Of a stretch of 64,000 nt of DNA, positions 3,423 to 36,159 are shown piece after piece. The first letter of the stretch is position 1. Each line of letters begins with the position of its first letter. Position numbers and translations under genes: made by a program. A model generated the notes under the pieces. That model was not told where the DNA came from. It saw only the letters and a program-made list of their open reading frames with translations, and did no database searches. The stretch is from Lachnospiraceae bacterium (GTDB lineage: Bacteria > Bacillota > Clostridia > Lachnospirales > Lachnospiraceae). The stretch spans positions 100,109 to 164,108 of the forward strand of contig JAAUZE010000008.1 in assembly GCA_014804755.1 (NCBI GenBank), given 5' to 3'.

Positions 3423-4847
3423 ATGGATCCGGTTGTAGTATTTGGCGCAGGAACCGGCGGGAAGATCGTGAAGTGGATGCTGAATGATTTTGGTATTCCG
3501 GTCAGGGCCTTTACGGATAACGGCAAGGATAAGTGGGGTACAATACTGGACGGGATTCCGGTGATTCCTCCGGATTCTTTATATGATGACGAAAGCAGGA
3601 TTGTGATCGCAAGCACCTGGGAGAGTGAGATCAGGAAGCAATTGACTGAAATGGGATTGAAAGACCGTGTGGTTGAGAAAGAGGTCTTTATGTATCAATA
3701 CCTGGAACAAAGCGCGGGGGTATATTCCGACCTTTCCGGGTATCCGATCGACAGCAGTAAAAAGCCAACGTTTTTATTCGGCACGGATCTCGGGTTATAC
3801 CAGGGCGGCGTGGAGAGCTGGACCTATACGGTAGCGGACGAGTTAAGAAAAAGGGGATACGGGATCAAGATTCTGACCAATCAGACCTCGCAGCCTGCAC
3901 CGGAACGGTTTCAAAACGACACCTATTATCTGAATATGCGGGGGCGGGAATATTGCAGTGGTTTACGTGATACAGTCCATGTGATCATGGAAAATGCGCC
4001 CTGCGTGGTCATTGATTCCTGGCAGAGCATGACGATGCTTGCGGCGGCAATCGTGAAAAGGCAGAATCAGGTTGCTGTTCGACAACTGATAGAGATAGTA
4101 CATAATAATCTGCCACGGCTCTTTGGAATCGTGAAGAAATTTGAAGCTGAGATCAATGCCTGTATGGGAGTGAGCAGGGATATTAATCGGAGTCTGGTCG
4201 AAGAATATCAAATGGCGCCGGAGAAGGTGCATTATAAAGAGAGCCCGGTAAAATATGATGCAGGCATAGGGCGGGATTATATGTCTGACGAGAGTCAGCC
4301 GCTTCGGATCGGGTACGCGGCGAGGTTGTCGAAAAGTCAGAAAAGGGCGGATTTACTGCCGGAATTGATGGACAGACTGATGGAACGCAAGGTTCATTTC
4401 CGCATGCAGATTGCCGGAAGCGGAGCTCTGCGCGATATGATTCAAAACCATATCACGGAAAAGGGGTACGCGCAGTTTGTGTCCCTTACAGGCTATATTC
4501 CAAGGGAAGAGATGAATCGTTTTTGGAGCAGTCAGGATATTTTTATTAATCTGTCCGAATACGAAGGCACTAGTCTGTCAATGTTGGAGGCGATGGGGAA
4601 CGGATGTGTTCCGATCGTTACGAAAGTCGCCGGATGCGAGGAGTTTGTCGCAGAGGACATGGGATATCTCTGTGAAATCGGTGATCTGGATGCCATGGCG
4701 GAAAAAATTGCATATCTTGACCGGCATAGAGAAAAGCTTGGGCAGATGGGACAGAAAGCGTGTGAATCCGCTAGAAGAAAATGCAGTGTGGAAGCATATG
4801 TGGATCATCTGCTGGGATTGACGGCTGAGGGCAGGGAAAAGGGATAA
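3423..4847 (+). CDS. family 4 (GT-B) glycosyltransferase with N-terminal Rossmann-like domain
   Basis: GT4 E-x7-E motif 'EYEGTSLSMLEAMGNGCVPIV'. SD GGAGGAGG lies before the ATG at 3423; the upstream ORF extension overlaps the GT2 and is rejected. Confidence 0.75.
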   Translation: MDPVVVFGAGTGGKIVKWMLNDFGIPVRAFTDNGKDKWGTILDGIPVIPPDSLYDDESRIVIASTWESEIRKQLTEMGLKDRVVEKEVFMYQYLEQSAGVYSDLSGYPIDSSKKPTFLFGTDLGLYQGGVESWTYTVADELRKRGYGIKILTNQTSQPAPERFQNDTYYLNMRGREYCSGLRDTVHVIMENAPCVVIDSWQSMTMLAAAIVKRQNQVAVRQLIEIVHNNLPRLFGIVKKFEAEINACMGVSRDINRSLVEEYQMAPEKVHYKESPVKYDAGIGRDYMSDESQPLRIGYAARLSKSQKRADLLPELMDRLMERKVHFRMQIAGSGALRDMIQNHITEKGYAQFVSLTGYIPREEMNRFWSSQDIFINLSEYEGTSLSMLEAMGNGCVPIVTKVAGCEEFVAEDMGYLCEIGDLDAMAEKIAYLDRHREKLGQMGQKACESARRKCSVEAYVDHLLGLTAEGREKG

Positions 4848-21559: not shown

Positions 21560-21703
21560 AAAAAAGATTTCATATCCAATGAAAGATGTTGCAAGCGATT
21601 TTGAGGCATAACGGCTGAAAGGACACGCTCTTTTTAAAATGGTGTGTCTTCAGAAAAGCGCGTATTCTTGTTTATCAAATTGGAGTTAGAGGAGAAAATC
21701 TGT

Positions 21704-22564
21704 ATGGCAGATGACGCACTTACCTGGTTGTTGGAGACAGGAAATCCGGCGGTAAAACATAGGACAAAAATAGAATTACTTGGGCTGGAGGATGACCCAG
21801 CTGAAGCATTCACATGGATTGTGTCAAAACTGCCTGACGATTGGTACAGAGTAAAAGGTTTGTGGTATGCATATTATATCAATGCTCTGGCAGAATGTGG
21901 TCTGAATCAATCCATGATGCCGTCCGAATGGTTCGAAACAGCAATGGACAGAATTCGGGCAGGCTTTGACTTTGGCTGCGAAGCATTCATGCTATTACAG
22001 GCAATGGTTGCCCTTGGATTTGGTGGAAATCCTGATGTGCAGAAAATATTTGCGCTGTTGCATGATAATCGCTTACCGGACGGAGGTTTTCTTTGCGAAA
22101 GACGAAAAGGCAGACTAAAGTATATTCCTAAAAGTTGTTATAAAGCAGATTATTATGCGTTAAGATTATGCTCATGTTGCCGCAAAAAGGGAATCATTCT
22201 CGATATAGAACAGGAGTTAATTCGTTATTTTCTGAGCAGAAATTTATTATTTAGACGGGATAATTTGGATAAATTAATACTTGGGGATAATGAGAAAGAA
22301 GGCTCGCGCAATTCAGATGTATTCTATCCGTTTGAACCGATGCGAATGGGAATTCAAAACATTATGGAAACGATTTCCTCACTTGGGTACGGAAATGATC
22401 CTGCAACTGCAGCCGGTTGGAATTGCTTGAATTCAGCAAAAGATGATATAGGGCGGGTAATTCTGGCCGGTACACTTACGAAGTCTTGGTTGCCAAAGGA
22501 AAAAGTAGGAAAACCAAGTGCGTGGGCAACGTTTTATGCGCTATTGGCTGAAAAAGAACGATAA
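21704..22564 (+). CDS. hypothetical protein
   Basis: SD GAGGAG before the ATG at 21704; no confident domain assignment. Confidence 0.5.
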   Translation: MADDALTWLLETGNPAVKHRTKIELLGLEDDPAEAFTWIVSKLPDDWYRVKGLWYAYYINALAECGLNQSMMPSEWFETAMDRIRAGFDFGCEAFMLLQAMVALGFGGNPDVQKIFALLHDNRLPDGGFLCERRKGRLKYIPKSCYKADYYALRLCSCCRKKGIILDIEQELIRYFLSRNLLFRRDNLDKLILGDNEKEGSRNSDVFYPFEPMRMGIQNIMETISSLGYGNDPATAAGWNCLNSAKDDIGRVILAGTLTKSWLPKEKVGKPSAWATFYALLAEKER

Positions 22565-22687
22565 ATCTTGAATTGCTGGACGTGACACCACAATTATAAC
22601 CACGAAAATGATACTTCCTTTTTGGAAGCGTTTGCCTTCTGAAAATAGCTTATACTGATTCTCAATACATCCGAATTGAGGGGAGAA

Positions 22688-23362
22688 ATGATAAAGGCGA
22701 TATACTTTGATTTGTTTTTTACATTGATTGTTCCGGCATACGAAAAAATAAATAATGAATTTGATATATTAAATTTGTCTGTTGGCGAGTGGGAACAGTA
22801 CGCCGAAAATGATATTTTATATCGTGAAAGGGCTTTGGGTTTCGTTAAAAATGAAAGAGAGATAATAGATAATATCGTGTCTCTTATGCCGTTTGAGGTT
22901 AGTATTGTTCAAAAACAGCAAGTTTTGAATGCTCGTGAAAAGAGGATGCAAAATGCCCTAAAAATGGTATCAAAAGAAATATTAGACGTTTTACAAAAAT
23001 TAAAAGCAGAGAATATCAAATTAGGGCTGATAAGTAATGCAGACTGCATTGATTGTAAATATTGGAACCAATCACCGTTATCTCCGTATTTTGATGATGC
23101 CATCTTTTCGTGTGACGTCGGATTGCTAAAGCCTGATAGACAGATTTATGAGTTAGCAATGCAGCGTTTGCATGTATCTCCGGAGGACAGTCTGTTTGTT
23201 GGTGACGGAGGTTCAAATGAATTATGCGATGCAAAGGAGGCAGGTATGGGTACTGTTTTTTCAGAAATGCTTGAAACGAAAAACGATGAGCAGAAAAAAA
23301 CAATTATCAAATATGCAGATTATCATATTAAGCATATGAGCGAACTGTTTTATTTGCTGTAA
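22688..23362 (+). CDS. HAD-family hydrolase
   Basis: 'IYFDLFFTL' (motif I-like), 'LISNAD' and 'FVGDGGSNEL' (motif IV). Confidence 0.7.
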   Translation: MIKAIYFDLFFTLIVPAYEKINNEFDILNLSVGEWEQYAENDILYRERALGFVKNEREIIDNIVSLMPFEVSIVQKQQVLNAREKRMQNALKMVSKEILDVLQKLKAENIKLGLISNADCIDCKYWNQSPLSPYFDDAIFSCDVGLLKPDRQIYELAMQRLHVSPEDSLFVGDGGSNELCDAKEAGMGTVFSEMLETKNDEQKKTIIKYADYHIKHMSELFYLL

Positions 23363-23452
23363 AGAAAAACTTCCGCTTTATCCAACAGCCAATCAAAAGC
23401 GCTTTCTATGTATCCATGAGTCAGAATATAAATTTAGTAGGAGGATTTCTGC

Positions 23453-23929
23453 ATGCCAATACAAATATCAGCCCAAGAGACAATCAATGCACTAAATGCA
23501 ATTTTTGAGAAACATAAAATGGAGCGTATTTGTGTTTTGGGAACAACATGTTGTGGTAAGACAACCTTGTTAAAACAAATTCCTGGTTGTGTAGATTTGG
23601 ATGATGAATTATGGCCGCAATTAACCAAAGAAGAAGCAGATTTTATCAGCCAAAAACCATGGACAAATGAAATTGGTGACTTTATAGATAAACTGGTTTA
23701 TGAAAAAATATCAGTAAAAGTTGGTCATCCGTTGTTCACTACAATCATTGTAGATTGCGATGTAGTAATATATTTGGATATCAGCGATGAGTTATTGGCT
23801 GAACATTGTAAGAAGCGGGGAAATGATTTTAAAGATTCCATAAATGTAAAGAAATCTATAGAAGGAGATTGGAATAATCACAGAAAAAGTGGTGGAAAAA
23901 CTTTTTATTATTTAACCGTCAATGAGTAA
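23453..23929 (+). CDS. P-loop kinase-like protein
   Basis: Walker A 'GTTCCGKTT'. SD AGGAGGA. Confidence 0.6.
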   Translation: MPIQISAQETINALNAIFEKHKMERICVLGTTCCGKTTLLKQIPGCVDLDDELWPQLTKEEADFISQKPWTNEIGDFIDKLVYEKISVKVGHPLFTTIIVDCDVVIYLDISDELLAEHCKKRGNDFKDSINVKKSIEGDWNNHRKSGGKTFYYLTVNE

Positions 23930-24007
23930 TAATCATGAAAAGAGAACTATAAAAAATAGCATCGCAGGGATACAACAGCATACCACCCGATGAGGAGCCA
24001 AAACCAT

Positions 24008-25162
24008 ATGGAACATAAAGGGACGGTCAGAAAAGAAACAGAAAGCTTGATCTTGCCGGAAATAAAAGAAAATAAACAGATCAAAGGCCTGAAACTGTGC
24101 GAAGACTTTTTCAACGATTGCGCAAAAGCAATTCTTGATGAAAACTTTCCTGAATTAAGATATTCAGCAGGGCTGATCGGCTATGGTTCCGATGTGTTAG
24201 GGTATGATGATGCCGTATCAACAGATCACATGTGGGGACCGCGGTTTTATCTTTTTTTAAGTAAAGAGGATCTGTCAAAAAAGAATGACATCCTTTCGGT
24301 ATTATCCGAAAAGCTCCCTTATACATACGAGGGTTATAGCGTGAATTTCACAGAACCCGATCCGAATGACTGCGGCGTGCAGCATCCCAAACTGATCAGC
24401 GAAGGAAAAGTGAATCCGCTGATCTTCATTTACACATTTGAGGAGTATTTGACGGAACAGATTGGGAAGTCCGATTTAGATCATATCAGTCCGCTAGAGT
24501 GGCTTGCGTTTTCGGAACACAGATTGTTATCATTGGTTTCGGGAAAATTCTTTGTCGATCAGCTAAATTGTGTCGGGACGATCTCCAAGCTGATATACTA
24601 TCCGAAGGACGTAAAGCTGTATCTGATCGCCTCCAATTGGGAATGCATCGCATCGGAGCAGGCTTTTATGAAACGTTGCGGCGCATGCGGGGACGAGATC
24701 GGTTCACGGATCATCTGCGCCAGAATTGCGGAGCGCCTGATGAGGTTATGTTTTTTGTATCAGGACACGTACGCGCCGTATAGCAAGTGGTTCGGAACGG
24801 CATTCAGTAAACTGCCGATTGCTGAGAAAATAAAGCGGGCGATAGAAGGCGCGCTGACTGCGAATTGTTTGACAGAACGGGAAGACCGACTCATCGAAGC
24901 ACAGGCGTTGGTCGCGGATATGCATAATGCAAGCGGGCTTACCGAGTTTGTTGCTTATCAGATCGAAAGCTATTTCGGCAGAAATATCAAGGTGATCTTT
25001 GCCGACAAGTTTGTTGAGGCAACAGTTAAAGAACTGAAAGGAACGGTATTTGAGAACATGCCGTTGATCGGGACATTCAGTCAGATCGGCGGACTCGCGG
25101 GATTTGCCGATGAAAAGGAATCTTACGGGCGGATGGCGAGATTATACTGCGGTGATGAATGA
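24008..25162 (+). CDS. hypothetical protein (possible nucleotidyltransferase-like fold)
   Basis: 'LIGYGSDVLGYDDAVSTDHMWG' resembles a nucleotidyltransferase G[SG]...D.D segment. Confidence 0.5.
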   Translation: MEHKGTVRKETESLILPEIKENKQIKGLKLCEDFFNDCAKAILDENFPELRYSAGLIGYGSDVLGYDDAVSTDHMWGPRFYLFLSKEDLSKKNDILSVLSEKLPYTYEGYSVNFTEPDPNDCGVQHPKLISEGKVNPLIFIYTFEEYLTEQIGKSDLDHISPLEWLAFSEHRLLSLVSGKFFVDQLNCVGTISKLIYYPKDVKLYLIASNWECIASEQAFMKRCGACGDEIGSRIICARIAERLMRLCFLYQDTYAPYSKWFGTAFSKLPIAEKIKRAIEGALTANCLTEREDRLIEAQALVADMHNASGLTEFVAYQIESYFGRNIKVIFADKFVEATVKELKGTVFENMPLIGTFSQIGGLAGFADEKESYGRMARLYCGDE

Positions 25163-25270
25163 GATGGTTAGATGATTGTAAAACGCTAACAACTTCACTA
25201 GTTCATATTGAGTTTTCTGGCCGCCTATGATAATATTCAGAGCAACAAATCGGGACCTGCGGAGGACAAT

Positions 25271-25747
25271 ATGGAGATTTATTCCAATCAGGTTGATGAA
25301 GCAATTAGGATTATGAAGGAAGTTGCTATGTGGGGGCGGAATAAGGGCTTTCGCATATGGCGGGATGAATGGCTGACAAAAGAAGAACTGATTACAATAG
25401 ATGCGCAGCCGGAGAACTTTTATATTGGTAAAATGGATGGTGTTGCAGTCTGTGCGTTTATTTTACAATGGAGGGATTCAGAGTACTGGCCTGATGCGGA
25501 AAATGAAGCTGTGTATTTGCACAAGCTTTGTGTAAGACGTGAATTTGCCGGTAAAAACATGACGCGCTTCATCATAGAAGCAATCAAGCAGCTTTGCAAA
25601 AAGAAGGGAATAAGGTATATACGGTTAGATACAGCACTTGATGAAAAGGTTGTAAGAAAGATATATTTAAAATTGGGATTTAAAATTGTGGATATTATAG
25701 ATTACCCCAATGGACGCTCTATGGCATTGTATGAGTTAGAGGTATAA
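25271..25747 (+). CDS. GNAT N-acetyltransferase
   Basis: 'LCVRREFAGKNMTRFII' motif A. SD GGAGGA. Confidence 0.7.
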   Translation: MEIYSNQVDEAIRIMKEVAMWGRNKGFRIWRDEWLTKEELITIDAQPENFYIGKMDGVAVCAFILQWRDSEYWPDAENEAVYLHKLCVRREFAGKNMTRFIIEAIKQLCKKKGIRYIRLDTALDEKVVRKIYLKLGFKIVDIIDYPNGRSMALYELEV

Positions 25748-25831
25748 ATATCTGTTTATCGGGTTGCTATCTGTTATGGCTGGCAACCCTAATCTGAAAA
25801 GGGAGAACACAAAAACCAAATGGATGGGTGA

Positions 25832-26404
25832 ATGATTCACATGAGTTCTTTATTGCAATCAACAAGAAACACGCGGGTGCTGCCGACAGGTACGATGCGA
25901 TATATTAGGAGCGATGTTCCGGAAAATTTGACTGGTCAGGAAATTCAGTGGCTGCTGGATCAGCATGTAACAACGATTGTGGATTTAAGGTCGGAGGAAG
26001 AATGTGTGAGAAGACCATGCTGTCTGAAAGGACAGGATGGTTTTAAGTATTTTCATCTCCCGGTTACCGGCGGTGGCGATACGCCCAAATCACTGGAACA
26101 TCTTCATGTGGTATATCGACAGATGATAGATGAAAAAATGGACAAGATCATCGATACAATCATGGGTGCGGAATCGAACGTGATGTATTTCTGTACAGCA
26201 GGCAAGGACCGTACCGGCGTCGTATCAGCAATGATCTTGAAACGGCTGGGATTCAGTAATGAAGTGATCATCAATGATTATATGGAGTCAAAGGATAATT
26301 TAATGGAGATGCTCACGGCATATGTGACTGAGCATCCGGAAGTGGATATCGAAATCATCATACCGCACAGGGAAAATATGGAACAATTGTTGAAACGTTT
26401 ATAG
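25832..26404 (+). CDS. protein-tyrosine/dual-specificity phosphatase
   Basis: CX5R P-loop 'CTAGKDRTGV'. Confidence 0.7.
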   Translation: MIHMSSLLQSTRNTRVLPTGTMRYIRSDVPENLTGQEIQWLLDQHVTTIVDLRSEEECVRRPCCLKGQDGFKYFHLPVTGGGDTPKSLEHLHVVYRQMIDEKMDKIIDTIMGAESNVMYFCTAGKDRTGVVSAMILKRLGFSNEVIINDYMESKDNLMEMLTAYVTEHPEVDIEIIIPHRENMEQLLKRL

Positions 26405-26513
26405 AGTTCAGAACGGTCACGTTATCAGGAACATACAAACGTGATGGAATTTTTTTGATGTAAATGCAAATGGCTTGTAATGGAGCAGAAAAGTCGGTAC
26501 GAGGTGACGAAAC

Positions 26514-27044
26514 ATGAGAAAAATCAGTTTATTTATTGCAATGAGCCTCGATGGGTATATAGCGGATAGTAAGGGCGGTGTCGATTGGCTGAAAGGACAA
26601 AGTAGCGATGAAGAGAATATTGACACCTATTCCGAGTTTGTAAAGAATATTGATACAATATTGATGGGGTGGAATACTTATCATCAAGTAGTTACAGAAC
26701 TTTCTCCCAATGAGTGGGTGTATAATGATTTTACAACTTATGTAATTACGCACAATGAGTATACTTCTTCAGAAAAAATTCGATTTACAAGCACAAATCC
26801 TGTTGATTTGATAAAAAGCTTAAAAAAAGAAAACGGAAAAGGTATTTGGATATGCGGTGGAGCTAATCTTATTCAGCAGTTAATAAATGAGGACTTAATT
26901 GACTGCTATTATATTACTATAATTCCAACACTTTTAGGCTCTGGTATTCGGCTTTTTGAAAATGCAAAATCTGAAATTAAGCTAAGATTGCGTAATATAC
27001 AGTCATATAATGGTATGGCAGATTTGATCTATACACGAAGATAA
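26514..27044 (+). CDS. dihydrofolate reductase family protein (RibD C-terminal-like)
   Basis: 'ISLFIAMSLDGYIADSKGGVDWL' and 'WICGGANL' motifs. Confidence 0.75.
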   Translation: MRKISLFIAMSLDGYIADSKGGVDWLKGQSSDEENIDTYSEFVKNIDTILMGWNTYHQVVTELSPNEWVYNDFTTYVITHNEYTSSEKIRFTSTNPVDLIKSLKKENGKGIWICGGANLIQQLINEDLIDCYYITIIPTLLGSGIRLFENAKSEIKLRLRNIQSYNGMADLIYTRR

Positions 27045-27169: not shown

Positions 27170-28165
27170 TCATGTGGAAACCTGTCTTTGCAGTCTCGCT
27201 TTCAGACTGTTCAGGAATCTTTCATTTTCGAGCACAGTAAGCATAGGCCCAAAGGACATGACTTCAATCAGCAGTTCGGTCTCCATATTCCGGTTATAAT
27301 AGATGACGCATTCATAGGTATCCTCATCTATTTTTGTAGTATTTTTTTCATAGTTTGCAAAGTGCAGCATGGCACGCTCAAGGGCATTGCGTTTGTTGAC
27401 AATGCGCAGTTTAAGAGGTTCTTTATAGTAAGAACGCTGAATCATCGCGTCTAAGTCCACAGGGGAGGATAGCGTTTTTGGCATCAGTTTTACGCTCTGA
27501 ATACGGGAAACATTCAGAATTTCCAGCTTCATTCTTCCGTCCGCTTTAGCTTCATGGTGCGAATCTGAATCAAAAGCCGGACGGCAAGGTTTCAAGGCGA
27601 GAATCCGGAATTTGTCATTTTTGACCGAGTATTCCAGACGGGCGGGGATATAGTGGTGATGTACGCGGTTCCCGTTGGGCGCGGTGTAGTCGATGTCCAC
27701 GTACTGTTTCTGTTTCTGTGCCTGAAGCAGAGTCCGAAAGCAGTGGCGGTAATTTTCATCCTCGTAAGGGTCGCTGTCGGCGAACCGATCGAAATAATAG
27801 AACTGTTCCGGTCTCCAAAGCGGAGCAACGGAAGCCAGCATTTTATCCAATGTTTCCAGCTGATCCTGTTCCAGGAACAACCCTATGCGCGGGTCGGACA
27901 GCAGTGCCTTAAGATAGGACTTCTCAAGGCTGGAAACAGGGGTGATAAAGGAGGATGAGAGACGGGAATGGTATAGCTTCCCATCCTTTTCAAATAAATT
28001 CCATGTCCCGTCTTCCAGCCTGGGGATTATGGAGAGCAGGCTCTCCTCAAAACCTTCGTCGCAGATCCGGCGGCGGATGTCTTGCATGGTCAGTGCGTCC
28101 TGACTGCACAGTAAATGTCTTAATACCTGGTAGTAACAGCTATATATTTCTGAGAATACTTCCAT
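27170..28165 (-). CDS. WYL-domain protein with WCX-like C-terminus
   Basis: 'YVDIDYTAPNGNRVHHHYIPARLEYSVKNDKFRILALK' is a WYL-like beta-barrel and the C-terminal '...PMLTVLENERFLNSLKARL' is WCX-like. Lies 15 nt downstream of its paralog. Confidence 0.6.
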   Translation of the reverse strand: MEVFSEIYSCYYQVLRHLLCSQDALTMQDIRRRICDEGFEESLLSIIPRLEDGTWNLFEKDGKLYHSRLSSSFITPVSSLEKSYLKALLSDPRIGLFLEQDQLETLDKMLASVAPLWRPEQFYYFDRFADSDPYEDENYRHCFRTLLQAQKQKQYVDIDYTAPNGNRVHHHYIPARLEYSVKNDKFRILALKPCRPAFDSDSHHEAKADGRMKLEILNVSRIQSVKLMPKTLSSPVDLDAMIQRSYYKEPLKLRIVNKRNALERAMLHFANYEKNTTKIDEDTYECVIYYNRNMETELLIEVMSFGPMLTVLENERFLNSLKARLQRQVST

Positions 28166-28180
28166 AGGTCTTCTTCCTTT

Positions 28181-29425
28181 TCAAGAGTTGTCCTTTATTT
28201 GGTACATCCGGCACATTGTCTGTAGATCCCGATAAAAGCGATGTTCCACGGATTTGTCCGTACATTCCAGAGACAAGATCCTGCCTATGAAGGTGCGGAT
28301 CCAGGGCAGCATCTCATTGCAGTCGAATACTTCTATTTCGTACTGATAAACATTACGTTCTATTCTTGTGACCGTACCGCCTCTGCCCTCACGCTTTAAA
28401 CGTTCCACAATATATTGTTCGGAAGGTTCCAGAGCCTGTATTGTCATAGTCAGCCGGTTAAGGTGGTGTCGGGCATTCCCCTGAAAGGATACGCCCCACA
28501 GATGGCAGCGGTTCCGATCCAGCTGTGCCAGCAGTTCCTCATATTTCTCCGATTGGTCTAAGAGAGTGACGGTTTTGACGGTATCCAGGCGGTAGCAGGT
28601 GAAACGCTTACTTTTTTTCGCATATCCGCATAGAAAACGGCGGCCGCTTCTGGTGCTGGTGAAAATCTGCAGGGGCGTACAGTCGGCGGTATTCAGTGCT
28701 CCGTTTTTGGAGCTTTTTATTTCCAGACGTACATCTGTCTTATGGTTCATGGCATTCAGAAGGTCGAAAAGGATTTCCTCCTCCAAAGTATGTACGCAGA
28801 AGCTGTGTTTCACCCGGAAGGTCCGGTTGTGATGATCAAACTGTTCCGAAAGGTGGTTTCCGATGATCCCGAAGCTCCCTGCCATCTGGTAAAATGCAAG
28901 GGCGTCCAGCATGCTCTCATTGGATTTTATCCAGACAGCCAGAGAATTATCGATGGAAAAAACGATGGTTTTCCCAGATTTCTTTTTATGTAACAGCCCT
29001 TCTTTTTCATAGGCGTTGCATTTTCGGCGAACGGTCTGTATATCGAACAGCGCCTCATATTTCTCAAGCAGGCCGCCTGTTATTTCCTCCGCAGTCAATT
29101 CTGCGCCGTCCTGAAGCAGATCAAGTATCAGAAAATGGAGCACGATATCGTTGTCGGTGAAGCTTTTCGTCTTCCATACCCGAAACAGAGGGTTGGTATC
29201 CAGCAGGTTACTGTCTATGGCGAGAGAAATGTTGGAGCCGTTAGACACATGGTCTTTCCGCACATGATTCCCAAGCCAGCTTTCCAGTCGCCTCCGTTCA
29301 TTGTCGTAGGTTCGGGGGCTTTTGTCCTTGAATTCATCTCTGGTCTTGAAGCCGTAGACAAAAAAATCACGCACATATTCTCTTGTTTTGGGAAAGCTTT
29401 TGACCAGCTCCTGAAAATCAGACAT
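28181..29425 (-). CDS. HTH-WYL-WCX transcriptional regulator-like protein
   Basis: N-terminal wHTH 'KSPRTYDNERRRLESWL', a WYL-like 'PLQIFTSTRSGRRFLCGY' and C-terminal 'IQALEPSEQYIVERLK'. Confidence 0.6.
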   Translation of the reverse strand: MSDFQELVKSFPKTREYVRDFFVYGFKTRDEFKDKSPRTYDNERRRLESWLGNHVRKDHVSNGSNISLAIDSNLLDTNPLFRVWKTKSFTDNDIVLHFLILDLLQDGAELTAEEITGGLLEKYEALFDIQTVRRKCNAYEKEGLLHKKKSGKTIVFSIDNSLAVWIKSNESMLDALAFYQMAGSFGIIGNHLSEQFDHHNRTFRVKHSFCVHTLEEEILFDLLNAMNHKTDVRLEIKSSKNGALNTADCTPLQIFTSTRSGRRFLCGYAKKSKRFTCYRLDTVKTVTLLDQSEKYEELLAQLDRNRCHLWGVSFQGNARHHLNRLTMTIQALEPSEQYIVERLKREGRGGTVTRIERNVYQYEIEVFDCNEMLPWIRTFIGRILSLECTDKSVEHRFYRDLQTMCRMYQIKDNS

Positions 29426-29632
29426 ATTGCCTCCGAATGACCGCCGTTTATGGCAGTTAGTTTTTATTTAGGAATAAATATAACACACTTCGCAACATTT
29501 TTGAAATGATTATTTGGAAAATGTTTCATATACTGATTTTAGTTCATCAAGCAAAACCATATAAAATGCGGCTTTGCATCAGGGAACGGAAGATGAACCA
29601 TATACAAGATAGGAAGAAAGGATGGAGAGGAT

Positions 29633-30865
29633 ATGTTCGTATTGTATAACGAGAATACAAGATTTCCGGTAAAGGTGTGGCTGAAAGATGAGAGTGGGCT
29701 GGAGGGAAAATGTCTGGAGCAGGCATACAACCTGTCGAAGCTTCCTTTCATACATAAATGGGTATGTCTGATGCCTGATACCCATGCGGGTAAGGGAATG
29801 CCCATCGGCGGAGTGATCGCCACAAAGGATGTGATCATCCCCAATGCGGTTGGGGTAGATATCGGATGCGGTATGGATTTTATTCCTACCAATATTCGCG
29901 TGGAGGACATAAAAGGCATTCAGACCGGAAACGGCACCCTGATCCAGTCCATCATCGGAAGCATCATGCGGACGATTCCGCTAAATACAGAGAGATACAA
30001 GGTTCCGCAGGAGTCGGAAGTGCTGGATCGTGCACAGCGGGAAATGGAAAAATATGAGGAGGATGCAGAGCTGGTGCCATTGATTGAGGACGGATATTTT
30101 CAGGTGGGAAGTCTGGGCGGCGGTAATCATTTTATCGAGCTTCAGGAAGATCAGGAAGGATATCTCTGCATTATGATCCACTCCGGAAGCCGTCATCTCG
30201 GAAAGGCAATCTGCGATTACTTCCATAAGAAGGCGGGAGAGCTGAACAGAATGTGGCACAGCGAAGTCAAGGATGAGTATCATTTGTCTTTCTTGCCTGT
30301 CCAGACAAAAGAAGGGCAGCAGTATATCAACTGGATGAATCTGGCGCTGGATTATGCCTTCGAGAACCGCGCCCGTATGCTGGATAAGACCTGTGGCATT
30401 GTGAAAGAGCAGATTGAGAAGCACACGGACCTCACAGTGGAATTCGGAGAGGAGATCAACTGCCATCACAACTATGCGGCATTGGAAAATCATTATGACG
30501 CTAATGTCTGGGTACATAGGAAAGGCGCTACCAGAGTGAGGGAAGGAGAAATGGCTGTGATACCGGGAGCCATGGGATCTTACAGCTATGTGGTGGAAGG
30601 AAAAGGAAATAAGGAATCCTTCTGCACCTCCTCCCACGGTGCTGGCAGAAGATACTCCAGATCCGGCGCCATGCAGGCATTCAGCACAGAGCAGGTCATG
30701 GTGGATCTGAAGGAACAGGATGTTGTGCTGGGAAAGCGCAAGAAAAATGATGTTGCCGAGGAGTGCCGGTTTGCCTATAAGGATATTGACCAGGTTATGG
30801 CACAGCAGCTGGACATGGTCACGCCGGTGAGGAAGTTAAAGACAGTGGGCGTGGTGAAAGGATGA
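29633..30865 (+). CDS. rtcB: RNA-splicing ligase RtcB (E. coli type)
   Basis: 'LMPDTHAGKGMPIGGV', 'GVDIGCGM', 'GGGNHFIE', 'EINCHHNY', 'CTSSHGAGR' and C-terminal 'VGVVKG' are colinear with E. coli RtcB. Confidence 0.9.
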   Translation: MFVLYNENTRFPVKVWLKDESGLEGKCLEQAYNLSKLPFIHKWVCLMPDTHAGKGMPIGGVIATKDVIIPNAVGVDIGCGMDFIPTNIRVEDIKGIQTGNGTLIQSIIGSIMRTIPLNTERYKVPQESEVLDRAQREMEKYEEDAELVPLIEDGYFQVGSLGGGNHFIELQEDQEGYLCIMIHSGSRHLGKAICDYFHKKAGELNRMWHSEVKDEYHLSFLPVQTKEGQQYINWMNLALDYAFENRARMLDKTCGIVKEQIEKHTDLTVEFGEEINCHHNYAALENHYDANVWVHRKGATRVREGEMAVIPGAMGSYSYVVEGKGNKESFCTSSHGAGRRYSRSGAMQAFSTEQVMVDLKEQDVVLGKRKKNDVAEECRFAYKDIDQVMAQQLDMVTPVRKLKTVGVVKG

Positions 30866-30889
30866 GCTCAGCGGGGGTCAAATACCCCG

Positions 30890-30931
30890 CAGTATACTGA
30901 ACAGAAAAGCTGATATGGTGTCAGTATACTG
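30890..30931. promoter_or_regulatory. pair of identical 10-bp palindromes CAGTATACTG, 32 bp centre-to-centre
   Basis: Located at 30890-30899 and 30922-30931, just after the rtcB stop and a GC hairpin (30871-30890). Confidence 0.3.
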
Positions 30932-31039
30932 TGGGATATTTGACAAGGCACGGGTATTGGAAGTCACTTCCTGCCCGGCGGTGCCGACAGCGTGCTGTGC
31001 GGTATTCCACGAATATTCCAACCGGCTTAACGTGGTGTT

Positions 31040-31400
31040 AAGTGAAGGTTTGTGGTGTCGAGGGTTCGAATCCCTCCCGTGTAAACGGTAGCTCAGTGGG
31101 TAGAGTGCACAACATTATGGCAAGACCTGTAAAGTCTGCGGTTCGAATCCGCCCAAAGCAATACTTTTATCCCGATTTCAGGCAAATTCTGCATCTCTGT
31201 GAAGCGCAAAGGATTGCGAAGCAGGGAAAGCGTGAGGGCGCCAAATCAGTCTGCGGCCTGAAGGCCGGGGATACCGCAGATCGGAAGGAGGAACAACACT
31301 CTGTAAAGAATATTGAGAAACGGTGATGATATCCCTTTACAGAGTGCCCTTCCTCCCCACGGTCTGCTGAACCGGGCTTCCGCTTCAGACTGATGAATGA
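31040..31400 (+). ncRNA. structured tRNA-mimic RNA (Y-RNA/YrlA-like candidate)
   Basis: Two T-arm mimics (31060-31076 and 31137-31153, GGTTCGAATCC loops). D-arm mimic TAGCTCAGTGGGTAGAG at 31089-31106 with U8/A9/G18G19. 12-bp perfect hairpin 31297-31308/31335-31346 and long-range pairing 31255-31263/31386-31394. No acceptor or anticodon stems. Confidence 0.45.
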
Positions 31401-31447
31401 GGGATATCAGTATTACTAAAACAAATTAAGATCAGGAGGAGTAAGTT

Positions 31448-32554
31448 ATGAAGTATATTATCAGAGATAATCAGGCAGGGTTTGTATTGAAGAATGGCGT
31501 ATTTCAAAAGATGATCACCGCGGGAACCTGGCATTTTCCTAAGATAGCAGGTTACACGGTCGAGATTGAGGAGATGTCGAATGAACTGGATTATCAGGAG
31601 GTTCCCTATCAGGTGCTTTCCGGAGATGCTGCATTCCTTAATGCCACTGTACATACGGAAATACCGGATGGCTCTGTGGGTTTCATCTACATGAATGGCA
31701 AGCTGACAGCCTTTGCGAGCAGGAAGGATTATGTATTCTGGAATGTGTTTGATACGTATGAGGTCAAAGTTGTGTCCATGGCGGAGACGTTCATCGGAGC
31801 AGAAGTGACGAAGCAGATGCTTTCGCTGGTGCCGAAGCACCTTTATACGGAGGTGTCGGTGGGAGAGGGAGAAATCGGTCTGGTATACTATGACAACGTC
31901 ATGCAGACCCCACTTTCCAAAGGCGTATATCGTTTCTGGAATTACCATCATGTCGTTTCCTGCTGCGTGATTGATATGAAGCAGAAAGAACTGGATATCG
32001 TGGGTCAGGAAATTCTGACCAAAGACAAGATAGGCATCAGAATGAACGTTGCATGCATGTATAAAATACGGGATGCAGTAGAATTCGTTGCAACGATCTC
32101 GGATCTGAAAGGACAGCTTTACCCTGCGGTACAGCTTGTGATCAGAGAGGTCGTGGGCAATTACAAGCTGGACGAGATACTGGAGGCAAAGGAGCAGATC
32201 TCCGGGGAAATCTACGAGGCGCTTAAGGGGCGGGAAGAGATGTTCTGTGTGAATTTCCTCACCGCGGGAATCAAGGATATCATACTGCCCGGCGAGATCA
32301 GGGAGATCATGAATTCTGTCCTTGTGGCGGAAAAGGCAGCTCAGGCAAACGTGATCGCCAGAAGGGAGGAGGTGGCCTCTACCAGATCTCTGCTCAACAC
32401 GGCGAAGCTTATGGACGAGAACCAGACACTCTACAAGCTGAAGGAGCTTGAGTATCTGGAGAAGATCTGTGAGAAGGTAGGCGACATATCTGTCAATGGC
32501 AATGTGGGAATCATGGAGCAATTGGGGAAAATGATGGGGACGAGACAGGGATGA
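31448..32554 (+). CDS. SPFH/band-7 domain protein
   Basis: 'GIRMNVACMYKIRDAVEFV...REVVGNYKLDEIL...AEKAAQANVIARREEV' is a classic SPFH core. SD AGGAGGAG. Confidence 0.8.
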   Translation: MKYIIRDNQAGFVLKNGVFQKMITAGTWHFPKIAGYTVEIEEMSNELDYQEVPYQVLSGDAAFLNATVHTEIPDGSVGFIYMNGKLTAFASRKDYVFWNVFDTYEVKVVSMAETFIGAEVTKQMLSLVPKHLYTEVSVGEGEIGLVYYDNVMQTPLSKGVYRFWNYHHVVSCCVIDMKQKELDIVGQEILTKDKIGIRMNVACMYKIRDAVEFVATISDLKGQLYPAVQLVIREVVGNYKLDEILEAKEQISGEIYEALKGREEMFCVNFLTAGIKDIILPGEIREIMNSVLVAEKAAQANVIARREEVASTRSLLNTAKLMDENQTLYKLKELEYLEKICEKVGDISVNGNVGIMEQLGKMMGTRQG

Positions 32555-32728: not shown

Positions 32729-33163
32729 ATGATAAAACAGGCAGAACAAGCAGATGCGTTAACCTTGGCAGAATTGGCAATCCAGATGTGGGAAGACAAT
32801 ACCATATCGGAGCTGGCATCCGAATTTGCGGAAATGATTGGCAGCGAGGATGCGGCTTGCTTTATTCAATATGCGGAGGACAAGCCGATCGGATTTGCGC
32901 AGTGTCAGCTTAGGCATGACTATGTCGAGGGCACGGAGACATCACCGGTCGGTTATTTAGAAGGAATCTTTGTTCAGGACGAGTTTCGCCATAAAGGCTA
33001 TGCAAAAGAACTGCTGCAGGAATGCGAAAAGTGGGCAAAGGGAAAAAACTGTTCTGAATTTGCAAGTGATTGTGAATTAGACAATGTGAATAGTCTCAAA
33101 TTTCATTTGGCAATGGGGTTTGAAGAAGCCAATCGGGTTATTTGTTTTCGAAAAGACATTTGA
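32729..33163 (+). CDS. GNAT acetyltransferase, aminoglycoside 6'-N-acetyltransferase-like
   Basis: Size and 'GYLEGIFVQDEFRHKGYAKELL' / 'KFHLAMGFEE' pattern resemble the AAC(6')-I family. Substrate is not established. Confidence 0.55.
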   Translation: MIKQAEQADALTLAELAIQMWEDNTISELASEFAEMIGSEDAACFIQYAEDKPIGFAQCQLRHDYVEGTETSPVGYLEGIFVQDEFRHKGYAKELLQECEKWAKGKNCSEFASDCELDNVNSLKFHLAMGFEEANRVICFRKDI

Positions 33164-33201
33164 GCAAGGTTAATTGATGCGGGACGAAAGGAATATATAA
33201 A

Positions 33202-33633
33202 GTGGAAAAGCTGAATCAGGAAACAAAAAAGATCATGGAAGAACGGTTCGGAAAAGACAATATTATCGCATTGGCGACGTTGGAAGGCGATATGCCCAGC
33301 GTCCGCAATGTGGACGGATTTTATGAGGATGGGGCGTTTTATACGATCACGTATGCGCTTTCCGACAAAATGAAGCAGATCGAAAAAAATCCGAATGTGG
33401 CGATTGCGGGAGAATGGTTTACCGCGCATGGGAAGGCGGTCAGTCTCGGTTATTTTGGCAGGGCGGAGAATGAGGACATTGCCGGAAAGTTGCGGACGGC
33501 TTTTGCAGAGTGGATTGATAACGGACACAACAATTTTGAAGATGAAAACACAGTCATCCTCTGTGTGCAGCTGACGGACGGTGTTCTTTTTTCACAGGGA
33601 GCAAGATACGAAATTGATTTTAGTGCGGATTGA
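33202..33633 (+). CDS. pyridoxamine 5'-phosphate oxidase-like FMN-binding protein
   Basis: 'IALATLEGDMPSVRNV' PNPOx-like split-barrel signature. Confidence 0.65.
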   Translation: MEKLNQETKKIMEERFGKDNIIALATLEGDMPSVRNVDGFYEDGAFYTITYALSDKMKQIEKNPNVAIAGEWFTAHGKAVSLGYFGRAENEDIAGKLRTAFAEWIDNGHNNFEDENTVILCVQLTDGVLFSQGARYEIDFSAD

Positions 33634-33650
33634 GGAGGGAATAGAAGACC

Positions 33651-34091
33651 ATGATTCATTTTGAAGCGATAACGGAAGAAAATTTTGATGCGGTCATCCA
33701 AATGAAGCGTCCACCGGAGGAGCATTTTGTAGCGTCAAATGCGTACTCTCTTGCGCAGGCGTGGCTGTATCGGGATGCGGGCGATGTGTATCCGTTTGCG
33801 ATCTGCAATAGCGGCGTATCGGTCGGTTTTATGATGCTGGATGAGGATTTGGAAGAACGCTGCCTCATCATATGGAGGATCATGTTCCCGCCGGAGCATC
33901 AGAACCAGGGTTATGGAACACAGGCCATCCAAGAGATTATTCGCATGGCCAAGGAATCCGGGAAATATGATTTTTTGCTTCTGAACTGCGCGCCCGAAAA
34001 TCACATTGCGGCGCATGTTTATGAAAAGCTGGGATTCAAACCGACCGGCGTTGTCAGTCACGGAGAGACGGAGTTAAAGCTGCTTTTTTGA
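33651..34091 (+). CDS. GNAT N-acetyltransferase
   Basis: 'QNQGYGTQAIQEII' motif A. Confidence 0.7.
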   Translation: MIHFEAITEENFDAVIQMKRPPEEHFVASNAYSLAQAWLYRDAGDVYPFAICNSGVSVGFMMLDEDLEERCLIIWRIMFPPEHQNQGYGTQAIQEIIRMAKESGKYDFLLLNCAPENHIAAHVYEKLGFKPTGVVSHGETELKLLF

Positions 34092-34148
34092 AGCTATATA
34101 ACATTTTTAAGAGGCAGAATGTTTCTGATGACAAGGAGGAGTACGCCT

Positions 34149-34685
34149 ATGAAAAGATGCAGATTATCCTATGATGAATGGAAATGTATCCTGTCAAAAG
34201 AGATGACCGGCAAAAGAGTGGTTGGGGACTTTTTTGAGGGATATATTGGTCTGATCGACATTCGACAGGTAAGTGAAGTGCAGAAATGGAAATTGGGCGG
34301 GGAAGAGATCGTGGTCTGCGACGGAGGCATCAAATGGCTGAGTATTTTGCCGCAGAATGATTTTTATTGTATCACTGCCATGATGAATGAAAAAAGCGAT
34401 ATATTGTTATGGTACATTGATATGATCGCGGGTCAGGGAACGGATACGGACGGTATGCCGTGGTTTGACGATCTGTACTTGGATCTGGTGGTTTATCCGA
34501 ACGGAGAAATTAAAGTGGATGACATGGATGAACTGGAAGAAGCGCTGCGGCAAAAAGACATCACGCAGGAACAATTTGATCTTGCGCTTCATACGGCCGA
34601 TCAATTGAAAAAAGGATTGTTAAAGGACATCCATTCTTTTAAGGACTATACATATGCATGCTATGAGCTCCTATGCAAAGATTGA
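34149..34685 (+). CDS. DUF402-like protein
   Basis: 'WFDDLYLDLVVYPNGEIKVDDMDEL' matches the DUF402 core. SD AGGAGGA before the ATG at 34149. Confidence 0.55.
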   Translation: MKRCRLSYDEWKCILSKEMTGKRVVGDFFEGYIGLIDIRQVSEVQKWKLGGEEIVVCDGGIKWLSILPQNDFYCITAMMNEKSDILLWYIDMIAGQGTDTDGMPWFDDLYLDLVVYPNGEIKVDDMDELEEALRQKDITQEQFDLALHTADQLKKGLLKDIHSFKDYTYACYELLCKD

Positions 34686-34793
34686 AAAATCAAAGATTTT
34701 TCTAAAGCGAACAAGTTCGCTTTGCAAATTTGTGCTGACGCCCAAATTCGCGGGCTGTTGGCAGCATGGAGGATTAGTTTGAAGGGAAAAACA

Positions 34794-35396
34794 ATGAATA
34801 TAGGCTTTCAGATCATAGCGATCGTGATATTACTCGTTTTTTACGGGTGCTATTTTACAAAAATGATATTGCAGAGAAAAAAGGGTATACAGACCAATCA
34901 GATGGGAAAAGGGAAAACGGGGCTTGTGAAGCGCATTGAGATTACAATGAAAATCACGTCACTCCTCGTCCCTGCGGCGGAGATTGTCAGTATTGTTTTG
35001 GACGTATCGCCCTTGCCGCTATGGGCAAGAATAGCGGGCGTGCTGATCGGAATCTGCGGAGCGGTGGTTTTTATTTTGGCGGTGGTGACGATGCGGGACA
35101 GCTGGCGTGCAGGCGTTTCGGAAATGGAGCGCACGGAGCTTGTCACAGGCGGTATTTATCAGATCAGCCGCAATCCGGCTTTCCTTGGATTTGACCTTGT
35201 TTACATAGGGATTGTGCTGATGTTTTTTAACTGGGTTCTGCTTGCGGTATCGGTATTTGCCGGTCTGATGTTCCATTTGCAGATCGTGAATGTGGAGGAA
35301 GATTTTTTGGTCCGAACGTTTGGACAAGCTTACCTTGATTATCGAAAAAAGGTGAACCGATATTTGGGGAGAAAGATTGGCAAACAAAATGGGTGA
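34794..35396 (+). CDS. isoprenylcysteine carboxyl methyltransferase-family membrane protein
   Basis: Multiple TM helices and 'NPAFLGFDLVYIG' ICMT/PEMT motif. Confidence 0.65.
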   Translation: MNIGFQIIAIVILLVFYGCYFTKMILQRKKGIQTNQMGKGKTGLVKRIEITMKITSLLVPAAEIVSIVLDVSPLPLWARIAGVLIGICGAVVFILAVVTMRDSWRAGVSEMERTELVTGGIYQISRNPAFLGFDLVYIGIVLMFFNWVLLAVSVFAGLMFHLQIVNVEEDFLVRTFGQAYLDYRKKVNRYLGRKIGKQNG

Positions 35397-35436
35397 GATT
35401 TGGGATTCTGTTTGAGCAGAATCATGGAGGATTAAC

Positions 35437-36159
35437 ATGAACATACACGAATTGGGAACGTGGGAACAGCTTCAGAAAAAATTGACATGGGAGCAGCTCG
35501 GGGGATTTTCGGGAAAACGGATTCTGGAGTTCGGCTGCGGAAACGGCGTGATGGGCGCGCATTATGCAAAGGATAACACTGTGATCGCGATAGAGCCGAA
35601 TGCGCAGGTTTTAACGGAGAATCCGTATGAAGATGTGGAGCAGATCTGCGGGGATTTCAAATTATTATCCCGATATGAGGACGAATCGTTTGATGTGATT
35701 TTTTGTCATAATGTACTGGAATACGCCGCAGAGCGCGCGGAAATCTTAAAGGAATTCCAACGACTGTTAAAAAAAGACGGACTTCTTTCCGTATTGAAGC
35801 ATAACCGTCCGGGGCGCGTCATGCAGATGACGGTACTGCTGAACAATTTTGAACATGCGAATGAATTGCTGGACGGAGCATGTGGCGTGAGTCCGCAGTT
35901 TGGGGAAATTCATTATTACGAGGACGAGGATCTGATCAAATGGGCACCAAAGCTGCGGATTGAAAAGATCCTGGGTATGCGGACATTTTGGGATTTACAG
36001 CAGAATCAGGACATACAGAAGGAAGAAGAATGGCAGCAAAAGATGATGCGTTTGGAGCAGCGGGTTTCCGGCATGGAAGAATATCGGAACATCGCGTTCT
36101 TTCACCATGTTTTTTTGAGAAAAGGGAACTGTTCAGAAAGTGCATCTTCAAAGCTGTGA
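35437..36159 (+). CDS. class I SAM-dependent methyltransferase
   Basis: 'ILEFGCGNGVMG' motif I. Confidence 0.7.
   Translation: MNIHELGTWEQLQKKLTWEQLGGFSGKRILEFGCGNGVMGAHYAKDNTVIAIEPNAQVLTENPYEDVEQICGDFKLLSRYEDESFDVIFCHNVLEYAAERAEILKEFQRLLKKDGLLSVLKHNRPGRVMQMTVLLNNFEHANELLDGACGVSPQFGEIHYYEDEDLIKWAPKLRIEKILGMRTFWDLQQNQDIQKEEEWQQKMMRLEQRVSGMEEYRNIAFFHHVFLRKGNCSESASSKL

Follow-up and report, generated by a model that had tools for sequence, protein, structure and literature searches.

The described systems closest to the locus considered here are the RtcR-RtcBA switch for RNA repair and a group of transcription factors built around WYL domains. In E. coli and Salmonella, a dedicated, divergently encoded, ligand-sensing activator, RtcR, lies beside the gene for the RNA ligase RtcB, and RtcR is reported to respond to damaged tRNAs (PMC7790460). 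PafBC, a DNA-damage activator of Actinobacteria, consists of two modules of helix-turn-helix (HTH), WYL and WCX domains (Müller et al. 2019, PMC6789036). The HTH of PafB reads a motif at −26, the HTH of PafC contacts domain 4 of sigma-A, and one single-stranded DNA (ssDNA) bridges both WYL domains (PMC11804915). DriD of Caulobacter acts at promoters without a −35 element, and its gene is transcribed divergently from a target operon (PMC13004042). It has been proposed that transcription factors with WYL or CARF domains respond to cyclic-phosphate RNA and control the repair of RNA (PMC9503650, PMC7824862). Here we describe two adjacent genes for WYL-domain proteins, which we call A and B, that are divergent from rtcB in a 64,000-nt stretch of DNA from a Lachnospiraceae bacterium (assembly GCA_014804755.1, contig JAAUZE010000008.1, positions 100,109 to 164,108 of the forward strand; hereafter the window). 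A sequence-only reading of this DNA had proposed that the pair, instead of RtcR, controls rtcB. We put the probability that A and B form a heteromeric activator, of the PafBC kind, for a regulon of RNA repair at about 0.6. In Lachnospiraceae, the pair appears to take the place that the RtcR switch has in E. coli.

Subunits A and B

The gene for subunit B (331 residues) occupies positions 27170–28165 and that for subunit A (414 residues) positions 28181–29425, both on the minus strand. The two open reading frames (ORFs) adjoin across a 15-nt spacer, and a divergent gap of 207 bp separates the gene for A from rtcB; positions and spacings agree to the nucleotide with those given by the sequence-only reading. 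In B, a degenerate, winged-HTH (wHTH)-like N-terminal region precedes a WYL domain (about residues 140–230) and a WCX domain (about residues 236–331). Subunit A begins with a basic N-terminal extension (residues 1–100) and a wHTH (about residues 91–160); its C-terminal half holds a WYL domain (about residues 215–290) and a WCX-like C-terminus, assigned from family-level Pfam matches and Foldseek.

WYL signatures and WCX-like C-termini had been claimed for both proteins, and both claims hold at the level of fold and family profile. Searched as single sequences, A reaches 18.8 bits against Pfam WYL (cutoff 21.8), B has no match, and NCBIfam gives nothing useful for either, whereas the PADLOC WYL model matches both proteins at about 1e-8 (4.8e-9 for B). 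With shallow alignments (67–92% identity), hhalign detects no similarity between A and B, and profile searches of the PDB are marginal or empty. The family-level matches required divergent homologues, which came from the scan for a promoter box described below. With these, Pfam WYL matches 18 of 33 A homologues (best 1.2e-8) and 16 of 33 B homologues, Pfam WCX matches 14 of 33 B homologues, and the A profile matches a 7P5X/9FND chain (E 0.0024), 9FND being labelled PafBC by Foldseek. The same alignments bring A and B together in hhalign, where only the WYL domains align (E 3e-4). B is also 100% identical to a protein that NCBI names WYL domain-containing protein (P0121).

Structural comparison leads to the same class. 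AlphaFold models built from shallow alignments are of moderate quality, with a mean predicted local distance difference test score (pLDDT) of 70.6 for B and 61.9 for A, and the top ~30 PDB matches of each model in Foldseek are all WYL-domain proteins, namely the regulators DriD, PafBC, BrxR and CapW and the CRISPR-associated entry 6OAW (E 1e-9 to 1e-4, probability 1.00, about 350 aligned columns). The best E values are 1e-9 for B (DriD, PafBC, BrxR, CapW) and 4e-9 for A (DriD, PafBC, CapW). The WCX domain of A is recognized at fold level only, through full-length alignment to DriD and PafBC. An N-terminal winged helix had been ascribed to the larger protein alone. It stands for A, where the wHTH matches ArsR/SmtB-type wHTH structures as well as full-length DriD and PafBC, but the restriction to A may not, since the N-terminus of B also lies within its full-length Foldseek alignment, although it is poorly modelled (pLDDT below 50) and carries no conserved basic residues. 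Fold models and family profiles together indicate that A and B are HTH-WYL-WCX regulators, with a domain layout that corresponds to the PafBC-like class A of Müller et al. 2019.

Do the two proteins work as one? The sequence-only reading recognized a PafB/PafC-style pair in their arrangement, and comparison across species strengthens that view. In a protein-based survey with one genome per species, which yielded 80 loci at 67–92% identity to A, A and B stand in tandem in 76, and in many lineages their ORFs overlap by 11–14 nt. Natural A-B fusions of 728–855 residues, with A at 1–410 and a full-length B at about 445–790, occur in nine clusters among the best 150 A-family representatives at 50% identity (P0372, P0375, P0376/P0511, P0394, P0425, P0426, P0445, P0476 and P0485). 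That these fusions are frameshift artefacts is ruled out by multiple independent variants of the same length. Six of the nine clusters include several independent full-length variants; for example, 36 contigs (NCBI, Logan, ENA) carry the 855-residue fusion P0511, a 775-residue form has 5 variants on 17 contigs, and a form of 794–799 residues has 7 variants. The best reading of the overlaps and fusions is that A and B constitute one heteromeric unit, with the dimerization suggested by these same features. PafBC (6SJ9, 7P5X, 9FND) likewise comprises two HTH-WYL-WCX modules that are encoded in tandem and fused in some lineages; the A. aurescens PafBC chains (6SJ9), of about 640–660 residues, read as a single-polypeptide fusion. 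PafB and PafC are close paralogues, whereas A and B can be aligned in the WYL domain only, and A carries an additional conserved, basic N-terminal extension of 90–100 residues.

The two subunits are markedly asymmetric. Invariant residues of A include R15, R19, K27, R29, the motif RTYD.E.RR and, in the invariant recognition helix QTVRRK, Q130, R133 and K135. In the family alignment, no conserved basic residues are found in residues 1–80 of B. DNA binding would thus be the task of A, as judged from conservation, and labour is likely divided as in PafBC, such that DNA is read by one HTH but not by the other. Within the A family, conservation is highest in the N-terminal extension (residues 1–100, encoded at 29126–29425 on the minus strand), which reads REYVRDFFVYGFK..KS.RTYDNERRR.ESWL ... 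NPL ... KSFTDND..LHF. It has no Pfam or PDB match and a pLDDT below 50, and it may be a new module that binds DNA or contacts RNA polymerase. The WYL domains differ as well. In the loop between beta4 and beta5 (R-L-D-R-I), A keeps the first arginine and the aspartate (R279-L-D281-x-I), and B keeps the second arginine (N218-L-x-R221-I). In PafBC, both arginines of this loop are functionally required, and their effect is additive across the subunits (PMC6789036).

The promoter box and the mode of control

An alignment of 58 rtcB-A intergenic regions contains a single strongly conserved block, in which a box, a variable stretch and a −10 element follow one another without indels. In the window, the near-invariant promoter or operator box TTCGCAACATTTTTGAAATGAT lies at 29489–29510 on the plus strand, occurs in a single copy, and is followed by a sigma-A-type, rtcB-directed −10 hexamer, TATACT (family consensus TATAAT), at 29529–29534 on the same strand. 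The consensus over 143 distinct promoters is aagTTCGCAaCTTTTTTgAAATGAT-N18-TATaAT, with TAnnnT at the fixed position in 96.5% of them, and the −35 position coincides with the 3′ end of the box (ATGATW; ATGATT in the window). Other promoter architectures were considered and rejected. An extended −10 would need a TG that is present in only 18 of the 143 promoters, and the TTGAAA inside the box would, as a −35 element, leave a spacer of 22 nt. A sigma-54 promoter was set aside on a motif scan of positions 29426–29632, where only matches with three mismatches were found, at chance level, and on a reading of the TGGAAAATG region.

The box follows rtcB. Of the 80 species loci, 76 contain it, and as the 80 were selected by protein similarity, they are unbiased for the box. 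In 17 loci, the distance between rtcB and A exceeds 450 nt (range 454 nt to 5 kb), and in all of these but L073 and L077, thus in 15, the box is 60–150 nt upstream of rtcB. No rtcB was detected in L052, and the box there directly precedes the RNA and the SPFH gene described below. Control of rtcB by the WYL pair, as first proposed, has thereby gained sequence-level support: the box is fixed in its distance to the −10 element, lies between the divergent genes and tracks rtcB where the locus is split.

The position of the box raises the question of whether it serves activation or repression. A and B could be a BrxR- or CapW-like repressor that occupies the box, blocks access to the −35 region of rtcB and is released by its ligand, a reading that we regard as rather improbable. 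BrxR and CapW are among the structural matches, belong to the same HTH-WYL-WCX fold class and are, like the pair here, local regulators of a conflict- or stress-related operon. They are homodimeric repressors that bind palindromic operators and are usually encoded co-directionally with their operon, whereas the site here is asymmetric. Repression of defence operons by WYL proteins has been described (PMC11888443), the box extends over the −35 position, and a candidate promoter for the regulators also overlaps the box in this genome. This candidate, TTCAAA - 17 nt - TGnTATATT at 29477–29505 on the minus strand, was found by a consensus scan and is weak, and its −10 part is conserved only among close relatives; with its −35 element inside the box, autoregulation is possible in this genome. 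Set against repression is the appearance of the rtcB promoter, which looks activator-dependent, with ATGATW at −35, an extended −10 rarely present, and rigid spacing as in PafBC and DriD. An activator fits better than a repressor of the BrxR/CapW type because an asymmetric box lies over the −35 position at a rigid spacing, the −35 element is poor and the operon is divergent, in a layout that resembles that of DriD. We therefore lean towards activation.

The likeness to PafBC extends to the promoter, where PafBC also uses an asymmetric, non-palindromic motif at a fixed distance from the −10 element and promoters without a proper −35. Compared by position, the motifs differ, since that of PafBC (RecA-NDp) is at −26 and the box here spans −54 to −31. 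DriD, which is among the best structural matches, is likewise an activator of promoters without a recognizable −35 and is encoded divergently from its target operon; it differs in being a homodimer, an ssDNA sensor and the regulator of a DNA-damage regulon.

A further reading holds that A and B are not transcription factors at all but RNA-binding accessory subunits of the RtcB, RNA and Band-7 products, with the box read by something else. The CRISPR-Cas-related structure 6OAW is among the structural matches, and we take it to be WYL1, an RNA-binding accessory of Cas13d. Moreover, the Sm-fold of WYL and the ferredoxin-like fold of WCX are characteristic of RNA binders (PMC6789036). Nevertheless, we consider this reading highly improbable. 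The wHTH of A is canonical, and its recognition helix is basic and invariant. In every case the regulators are either divergent from the cargo or separable from it, and it is the cargo that the box accompanies. In addition, the invariance of the operator parallels that of the DNA-reading N-terminal region of A.

The RNA-repair cassette

The gene divergent from the regulators, at 29633–30865 on the plus strand, was identified by Pfam and alignment as rtcB of the short, bacterial (E. coli) type, encoding a ligase for RNA 3′-phosphate or 2′,3′-cyclic-phosphate ends. The product matches Pfam RtcB at 3.6e-108 and, as had been stated, is colinear from end to end with RtcB of E. coli K-12 (37% identity, E 2e-77). 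The motifs DIGCGM, GNHFIE, HSGSR, CHHNY and SHGAGR align with those of E. coli and P. horikoshii RtcB; they are the metal and His-GMP (guanosine monophosphate) sites of the ligase. The absence of RtcR, rtcA and archease from the neighbourhood was likewise upheld. In tblastn searches with E. coli queries, neither RtcA nor RtcR has a match in the 64-kb window, where the best E values are 2.2 and 0.067, or in any of 200 related loci, and Pfam finds no archease, RtcA, RtcR or enhancer-binding protein among 14 neighbouring genes. Together with the lack of a sigma-54 promoter in the intergenic region, these results agree with the proposal that the pair acts instead of RtcR. The comparison with RtcR-RtcBA is thus one of shared layout and different parts, with a WYL pair here in place of a CARF-AAA+ enhancer-binding protein.

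A cassette of genes around rtcB recurs as a unit. Over the 80 species loci, A is present in 80, B in 76, RtcB in 72 and a gene for an SPFH protein in 53, whereas each of the other genes among the 17 tested (21.6–36.2 kb) recurs in 0–1 loci, and clustering of all ORFs in the loci revealed no further recurrent gene. Independent gene calls in a human-gut species give the same order, Band_7 <- RtcB | A -> B, with housekeeping genes on the flanks. The A family as a whole exceeds 300 protein clusters at 50% identity (E <= 1e-30) and is abundant in Lachnospiraceae of the mouse and human gut. Could the adjacency be nothing more than inherited synteny, without functional coupling? The 80 loci nearly all carry labels of Lachnospiraceae or related Clostridia, two being mislabelled “Bacteroides sp.”, as such a reading would have it. 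However, the flanking genes all differ between species, and the architecture holds down to about 31–58% regulator identity and across three types of cargo. Because the cassette persists while its flanks change completely, functional linkage is indicated rather than inherited synteny, which is effectively refuted and which we consider next to untenable.

The operon is larger than the unit that was originally recognized, as it comprises rtcB, a tRNA-like RNA (about 30932–31185) and a Band-7 gene (31448–32554). The last gene of the cassette, on the plus strand, encodes a 368-residue SPFH/Band-7 protein (Pfam Band_7, 2.3e-26) and follows rtcB and the RNA in the 53 loci just mentioned. In the window, 580 nt of non-coding DNA separate rtcB from this gene, and the interval at about 30932–31185 is conserved above the surrounding DNA across species. 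Partial Rfam matches, conservation and covariation place a structured RNA at 30933–31154 on the plus strand. Its 5′ part is a three-way junction (30933–31019), which is followed by a hairpin (about 31026–31042) and a tRNA-like core (31047–31154), all on that strand. The core consists of a T-arm, a mini-hairpin, a D-arm, an anticodon-arm-like hairpin with a 7-nt loop, and a second T-arm. The first T-arm, the mini-hairpin and the D-arm closed by a UGUG/CACA stem constitute a YrlA-like permuted tRNA module. Rfam YrlA (RF02553) matches 31052–31113 in part, through its tRNA-like module (model positions 23–88, 35.7 bits, E 5e-5), below the gathering score of 69 bits and overlapping a partial Rfam tRNA match. 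ARAGORN calls no tRNA in the window, and no Ro60 (Rsr) is found in it.

The structure is supported by comparison. In 36 sequences, its 63 pairs in 11 helices are 95.5% paired, and 17 pairs show compensatory double changes, compared with 6.5 +- 1.5 in column shuffles (0 of 500 reached this number) and 2–6 in slid controls. With a covariance model of the tRNA-like core, full-length homologues were retrieved from 56 of 100 metagenomic loci, in the gap between rtcB and the SPFH gene, in the gap between box and SPFH gene if rtcB is missing and also, though more weakly, in the leaders of DUF2828 genes. A second conserved non-coding block, at 31247–31410 on the plus strand, lies in the interval from the tRNA-like RNA to the SPFH start. 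Its flanking motifs are conserved and enclose a long, very stable hairpin of variable length (minimum free energy −74.9 kcal/mol for 190 nt), and the alignment of the block is too gappy for reliable covariation. This block could be a 3′ part of the tRNA-like RNA, a processing site or the leader of the SPFH gene. Directly after the rtcB stop codon, a hairpin at 30871–30890 (GCGGGG-GTCAAATA-CCCCGC) has no U-run and is not conserved in sequence; it is no obvious intrinsic terminator, which fits a transcript that reads through to the RNA and the SPFH gene.

A module of this kind has been described before. Wang et al. [quoted passage not shown] Compared by that description, the present locus matches the RtcB/b7a-tRNA/Band-7 system: RtcB adjoins Band-7, a tRNA-like RNA lies between them, and related cassettes swap a protein with DUF2828 and vWA domains for Band-7. 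On the same account, the RNA differs, being at least 220 nt here, with a three-way junction, two T-arms and a YrlA-like module, as opposed to a near-authentic tRNA. Another parallel is the Rtc system of Salmonella, in which YrlA, a Y RNA, and the scaffold protein Rsr share the operon, much as the RNA and the Band-7 protein do here.

The box reaches beyond these loci. A scan of metagenome contigs for exact matches, to which A/B pairs with other operators are invisible, gave at least 120 loci. Among the matches listed there are 122 boxes, and 113 of these have enough downstream sequence to be assessed; the counts in the remainder of this section refer to the same matches. About 101 of the 113 boxes precede cargo, which is rtcB in 72 cases, SPFH in 16 and a DUF2828-vWA protein of about 500 residues in 13, and 77 boxes have a divergent A homologue within 3 kb on their upstream side. 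These loci include divergent clades, in which identity to the proteins of the window (tblastn) is about 31–58% for A, 29–51% for B and mostly 49–76% for RtcB. The operator is therefore conserved far beyond overall protein identity, which parallels the near-invariance of the first 100 residues and the recognition helix of A. As the box drives operons without rtcB in many relatives, the WYL pair is, on this comparative evidence, tied to an RNA-repair module and not to rtcB alone.

The third type of cargo combines DUF2828 with DUF7788/vWA. Its architecture resembles that of Ro60 (TROVE plus vWA), and it may be the “Rot/TROVE” module of Burroughs and Aravind. The Rfam tRNA model matches above its gathering score in the leaders of DUF2828 genes at L119, L081, L176 and L146. 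A sister clade (L081, L086, L097, L118, L119, L146, L151, L176, L178, L185, L153 and L156) has the order box, tRNA-like leader RNA and DUF2828 + DUF7788/vWA protein, sometimes followed by rtcB. Two of its loci carry two boxes each, with different cargos. In L153, the boxes lie at 1709–1729 and 3792–3812 (minus strand), and the order is box, DUF2828-vWA, second box, two matches to the tRNA model (67 and 54 bits) and a distantly related paralogue of RtcB (30% identity). The boxes of L156 are at 3098 and 6839, and the regulators lie between the two box-driven units, co-directional with rtcB.

The cargo bears on what the pair may sense. One alternative is that A and B detect ssDNA, as PafBC and DriD do, and that the RNA-repair cassette is one output of a response to DNA damage. 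Apart from the ligands of PafBC and DriD (PMC11804915, PMC13004042), an ssDNA-bound CapW structure is among the PDB matches, and expression of the rtc operon of Salmonella in the SOS response has been reported (PMC9879122). Nevertheless, all cargo behind the box is RNA-centred (RtcB, tRNA-like RNA, Band-7, DUF2828-vWA), in contrast to the DNA-repair cargo of PafBC, and no DNA-repair gene stands behind any of the ~101 boxes. Moreover, the Sm-fold of WYL and the ferredoxin-like fold of WCX are typical of RNA binders (Müller et al., PMC6789036). We consider a DNA-damage sensor doubtful. Damaged RNA is favoured over ssDNA as the ligand because all of the cargo is RNA-centred, because the Aravind group has made a proposal to that effect, and because of the response of RtcR to damaged tRNAs.

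The cassette is modular, and parts of it can be lost. Eleven species loci have the regulators and rtcB with no RNA or SPFH gene detected downstream (L048, L053, L059, L060, L068, L070, L073, L075, L076, L079 and L080). Boxes without any cassette gene, such as those upstream of MATE efflux genes, account for 12 of the 113 and probably arose by chance, the pattern being AT-rich, 18 bases long and searched for in a very large collection, although some may mark further members of the regulon (L082, L088, L108, L110, L132, L161, L169, L181, L184, L192 and L194). In the window, the flanks of the cassette (21644–27044 and 32729–36159) encode small accessory enzymes that are unrelated, namely four GNAT acetyltransferases and proteins of the HAD, DUF4037, Tyr-phosphatase, RibD_C, PNPOx, DUF402, ICMT/PEMT and methyltransferase families. 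Several of these neighbours (P-loop kinase-like, Tyr-phosphatase, DUF4037, GNAT) were considered as partners that modify RNA ends and were set aside, as none recurs in related loci. The host is a member of the Lachnospiraceae and the neighbours are unrelated; in contrast to PafBC of Actinobacteria, there is no linkage to the Pup-proteasome locus. A lysine riboswitch at 1010–1179 (minus strand, 99.9 bits) in the metagenomic locus L123 is unrelated to the cassette.

A proposed circuit and its implications

How might the parts work together? In the mechanism that we favour, A and B would together make up a single heteromeric transcription factor of a PafBC-like HTH-WYL-WCX type. Its subunit A would read the asymmetric, near-invariant box TTCGCAaCTTTTTTgAAATGAT, which spans about −54 to −31 of a sigma-A-type promoter with a good TAnnnT −10 element at a rigid 18 nt and a poor −35. 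Subunit B would contact RNA polymerase or sigma, or serve as a co-sensor, like PafC. Upon binding of a nucleic-acid ligand in both WYL domains, the complex would activate the operon of rtcB, tRNA-like RNA and Band-7 gene. The likeliest ligand would be damaged RNA, for example, tRNA fragments with 2′,3′-cyclic-phosphate or 5′-OH ends. Activation would supply the ligase together with a putative RNA and scaffold cofactor for RNA repair, such that the WYL pair would fill the role that falls to the CARF/sigma-54 activator RtcR in Proteobacteria.

Several observations weigh against this mechanism. First, the established ligands of PafBC and DriD are ssDNA, not RNA (PMC11804915, PMC13004042), and the structural matches include the ssDNA-bound CapW entry. 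Second, the box lies over the −35 position, where it would be equally well placed for a repressor. Third, 17 of the box-cargo loci among the metagenome matches listed have no A within 3 kb, and a few loci have no B, namely L018, which also lacks rtcB, and L019, with none within 6 kb. Fourth, the AlphaFold models are mediocre, with the low pLDDT of the N-terminus of A and global TM-scores of 0.2–0.44.

A more specific version of the activator is conceivable, although we hold it only tentatively and find it slightly harder to credit than either the repressor or the DNA-damage sensor. It supposes that the pair is the first RNA-sensing WYL activator with PafBC-like “sigma adaptation” outside Actinobacteria, and that its signal is the cleavage state of tRNA-like molecules. 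The tRNA-like RNA of the cassette might then act as a decoy for anticodon nucleases and ribotoxins, or as a sentinel, and fragments with 2′,3′-cyclic-phosphate ends might bridge the complementary WYL pockets, with the first arginine supplied by A and the second by B.

Some of this is already in the comparative-genomics literature, namely the module of RtcB, Band-7 and tRNA-like RNA and the occurrence of WYL regulators in RNA-repair contexts. In a comparison with the literature from which Burroughs and Aravind 2016 lay outside, no description was found of a paired or fused WYL regulator of rtcB, of the operator, of the fixed-spacing promoter or of its use with three cargos.

What would the activator mean for the biology of these bacteria? 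First, the pair would be a concrete and widespread candidate for the induction of RNA repair in bacteria without RtcR, with a defined operator and a simple promoter geometry. Second, the heteromeric or fused design of PafBC would extend beyond Actinobacteria, and the natural fusions would be convenient single-chain constructs for biochemistry. Third, a regulator would be tied to the unvalidated b7a-tRNA/Band-7 and DUF2828-vWA ribonucleoprotein modules, and the conditions that induce it would provide a handle on their substrates. Fourth, the Sm-fold of WYL prompted the proposal that these domains bind RNA, and a WYL pair with RNA-repair cargo is a natural test case for RNA sensing. Should the more specific, tentative version hold, the cassette would be a self-contained circuit that detects and repairs RNA damage in gut Clostridia. 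The system is abundant in the gut and well defined, and it offers a setting in which to ask whether a WYL sensor reads RNA damage.

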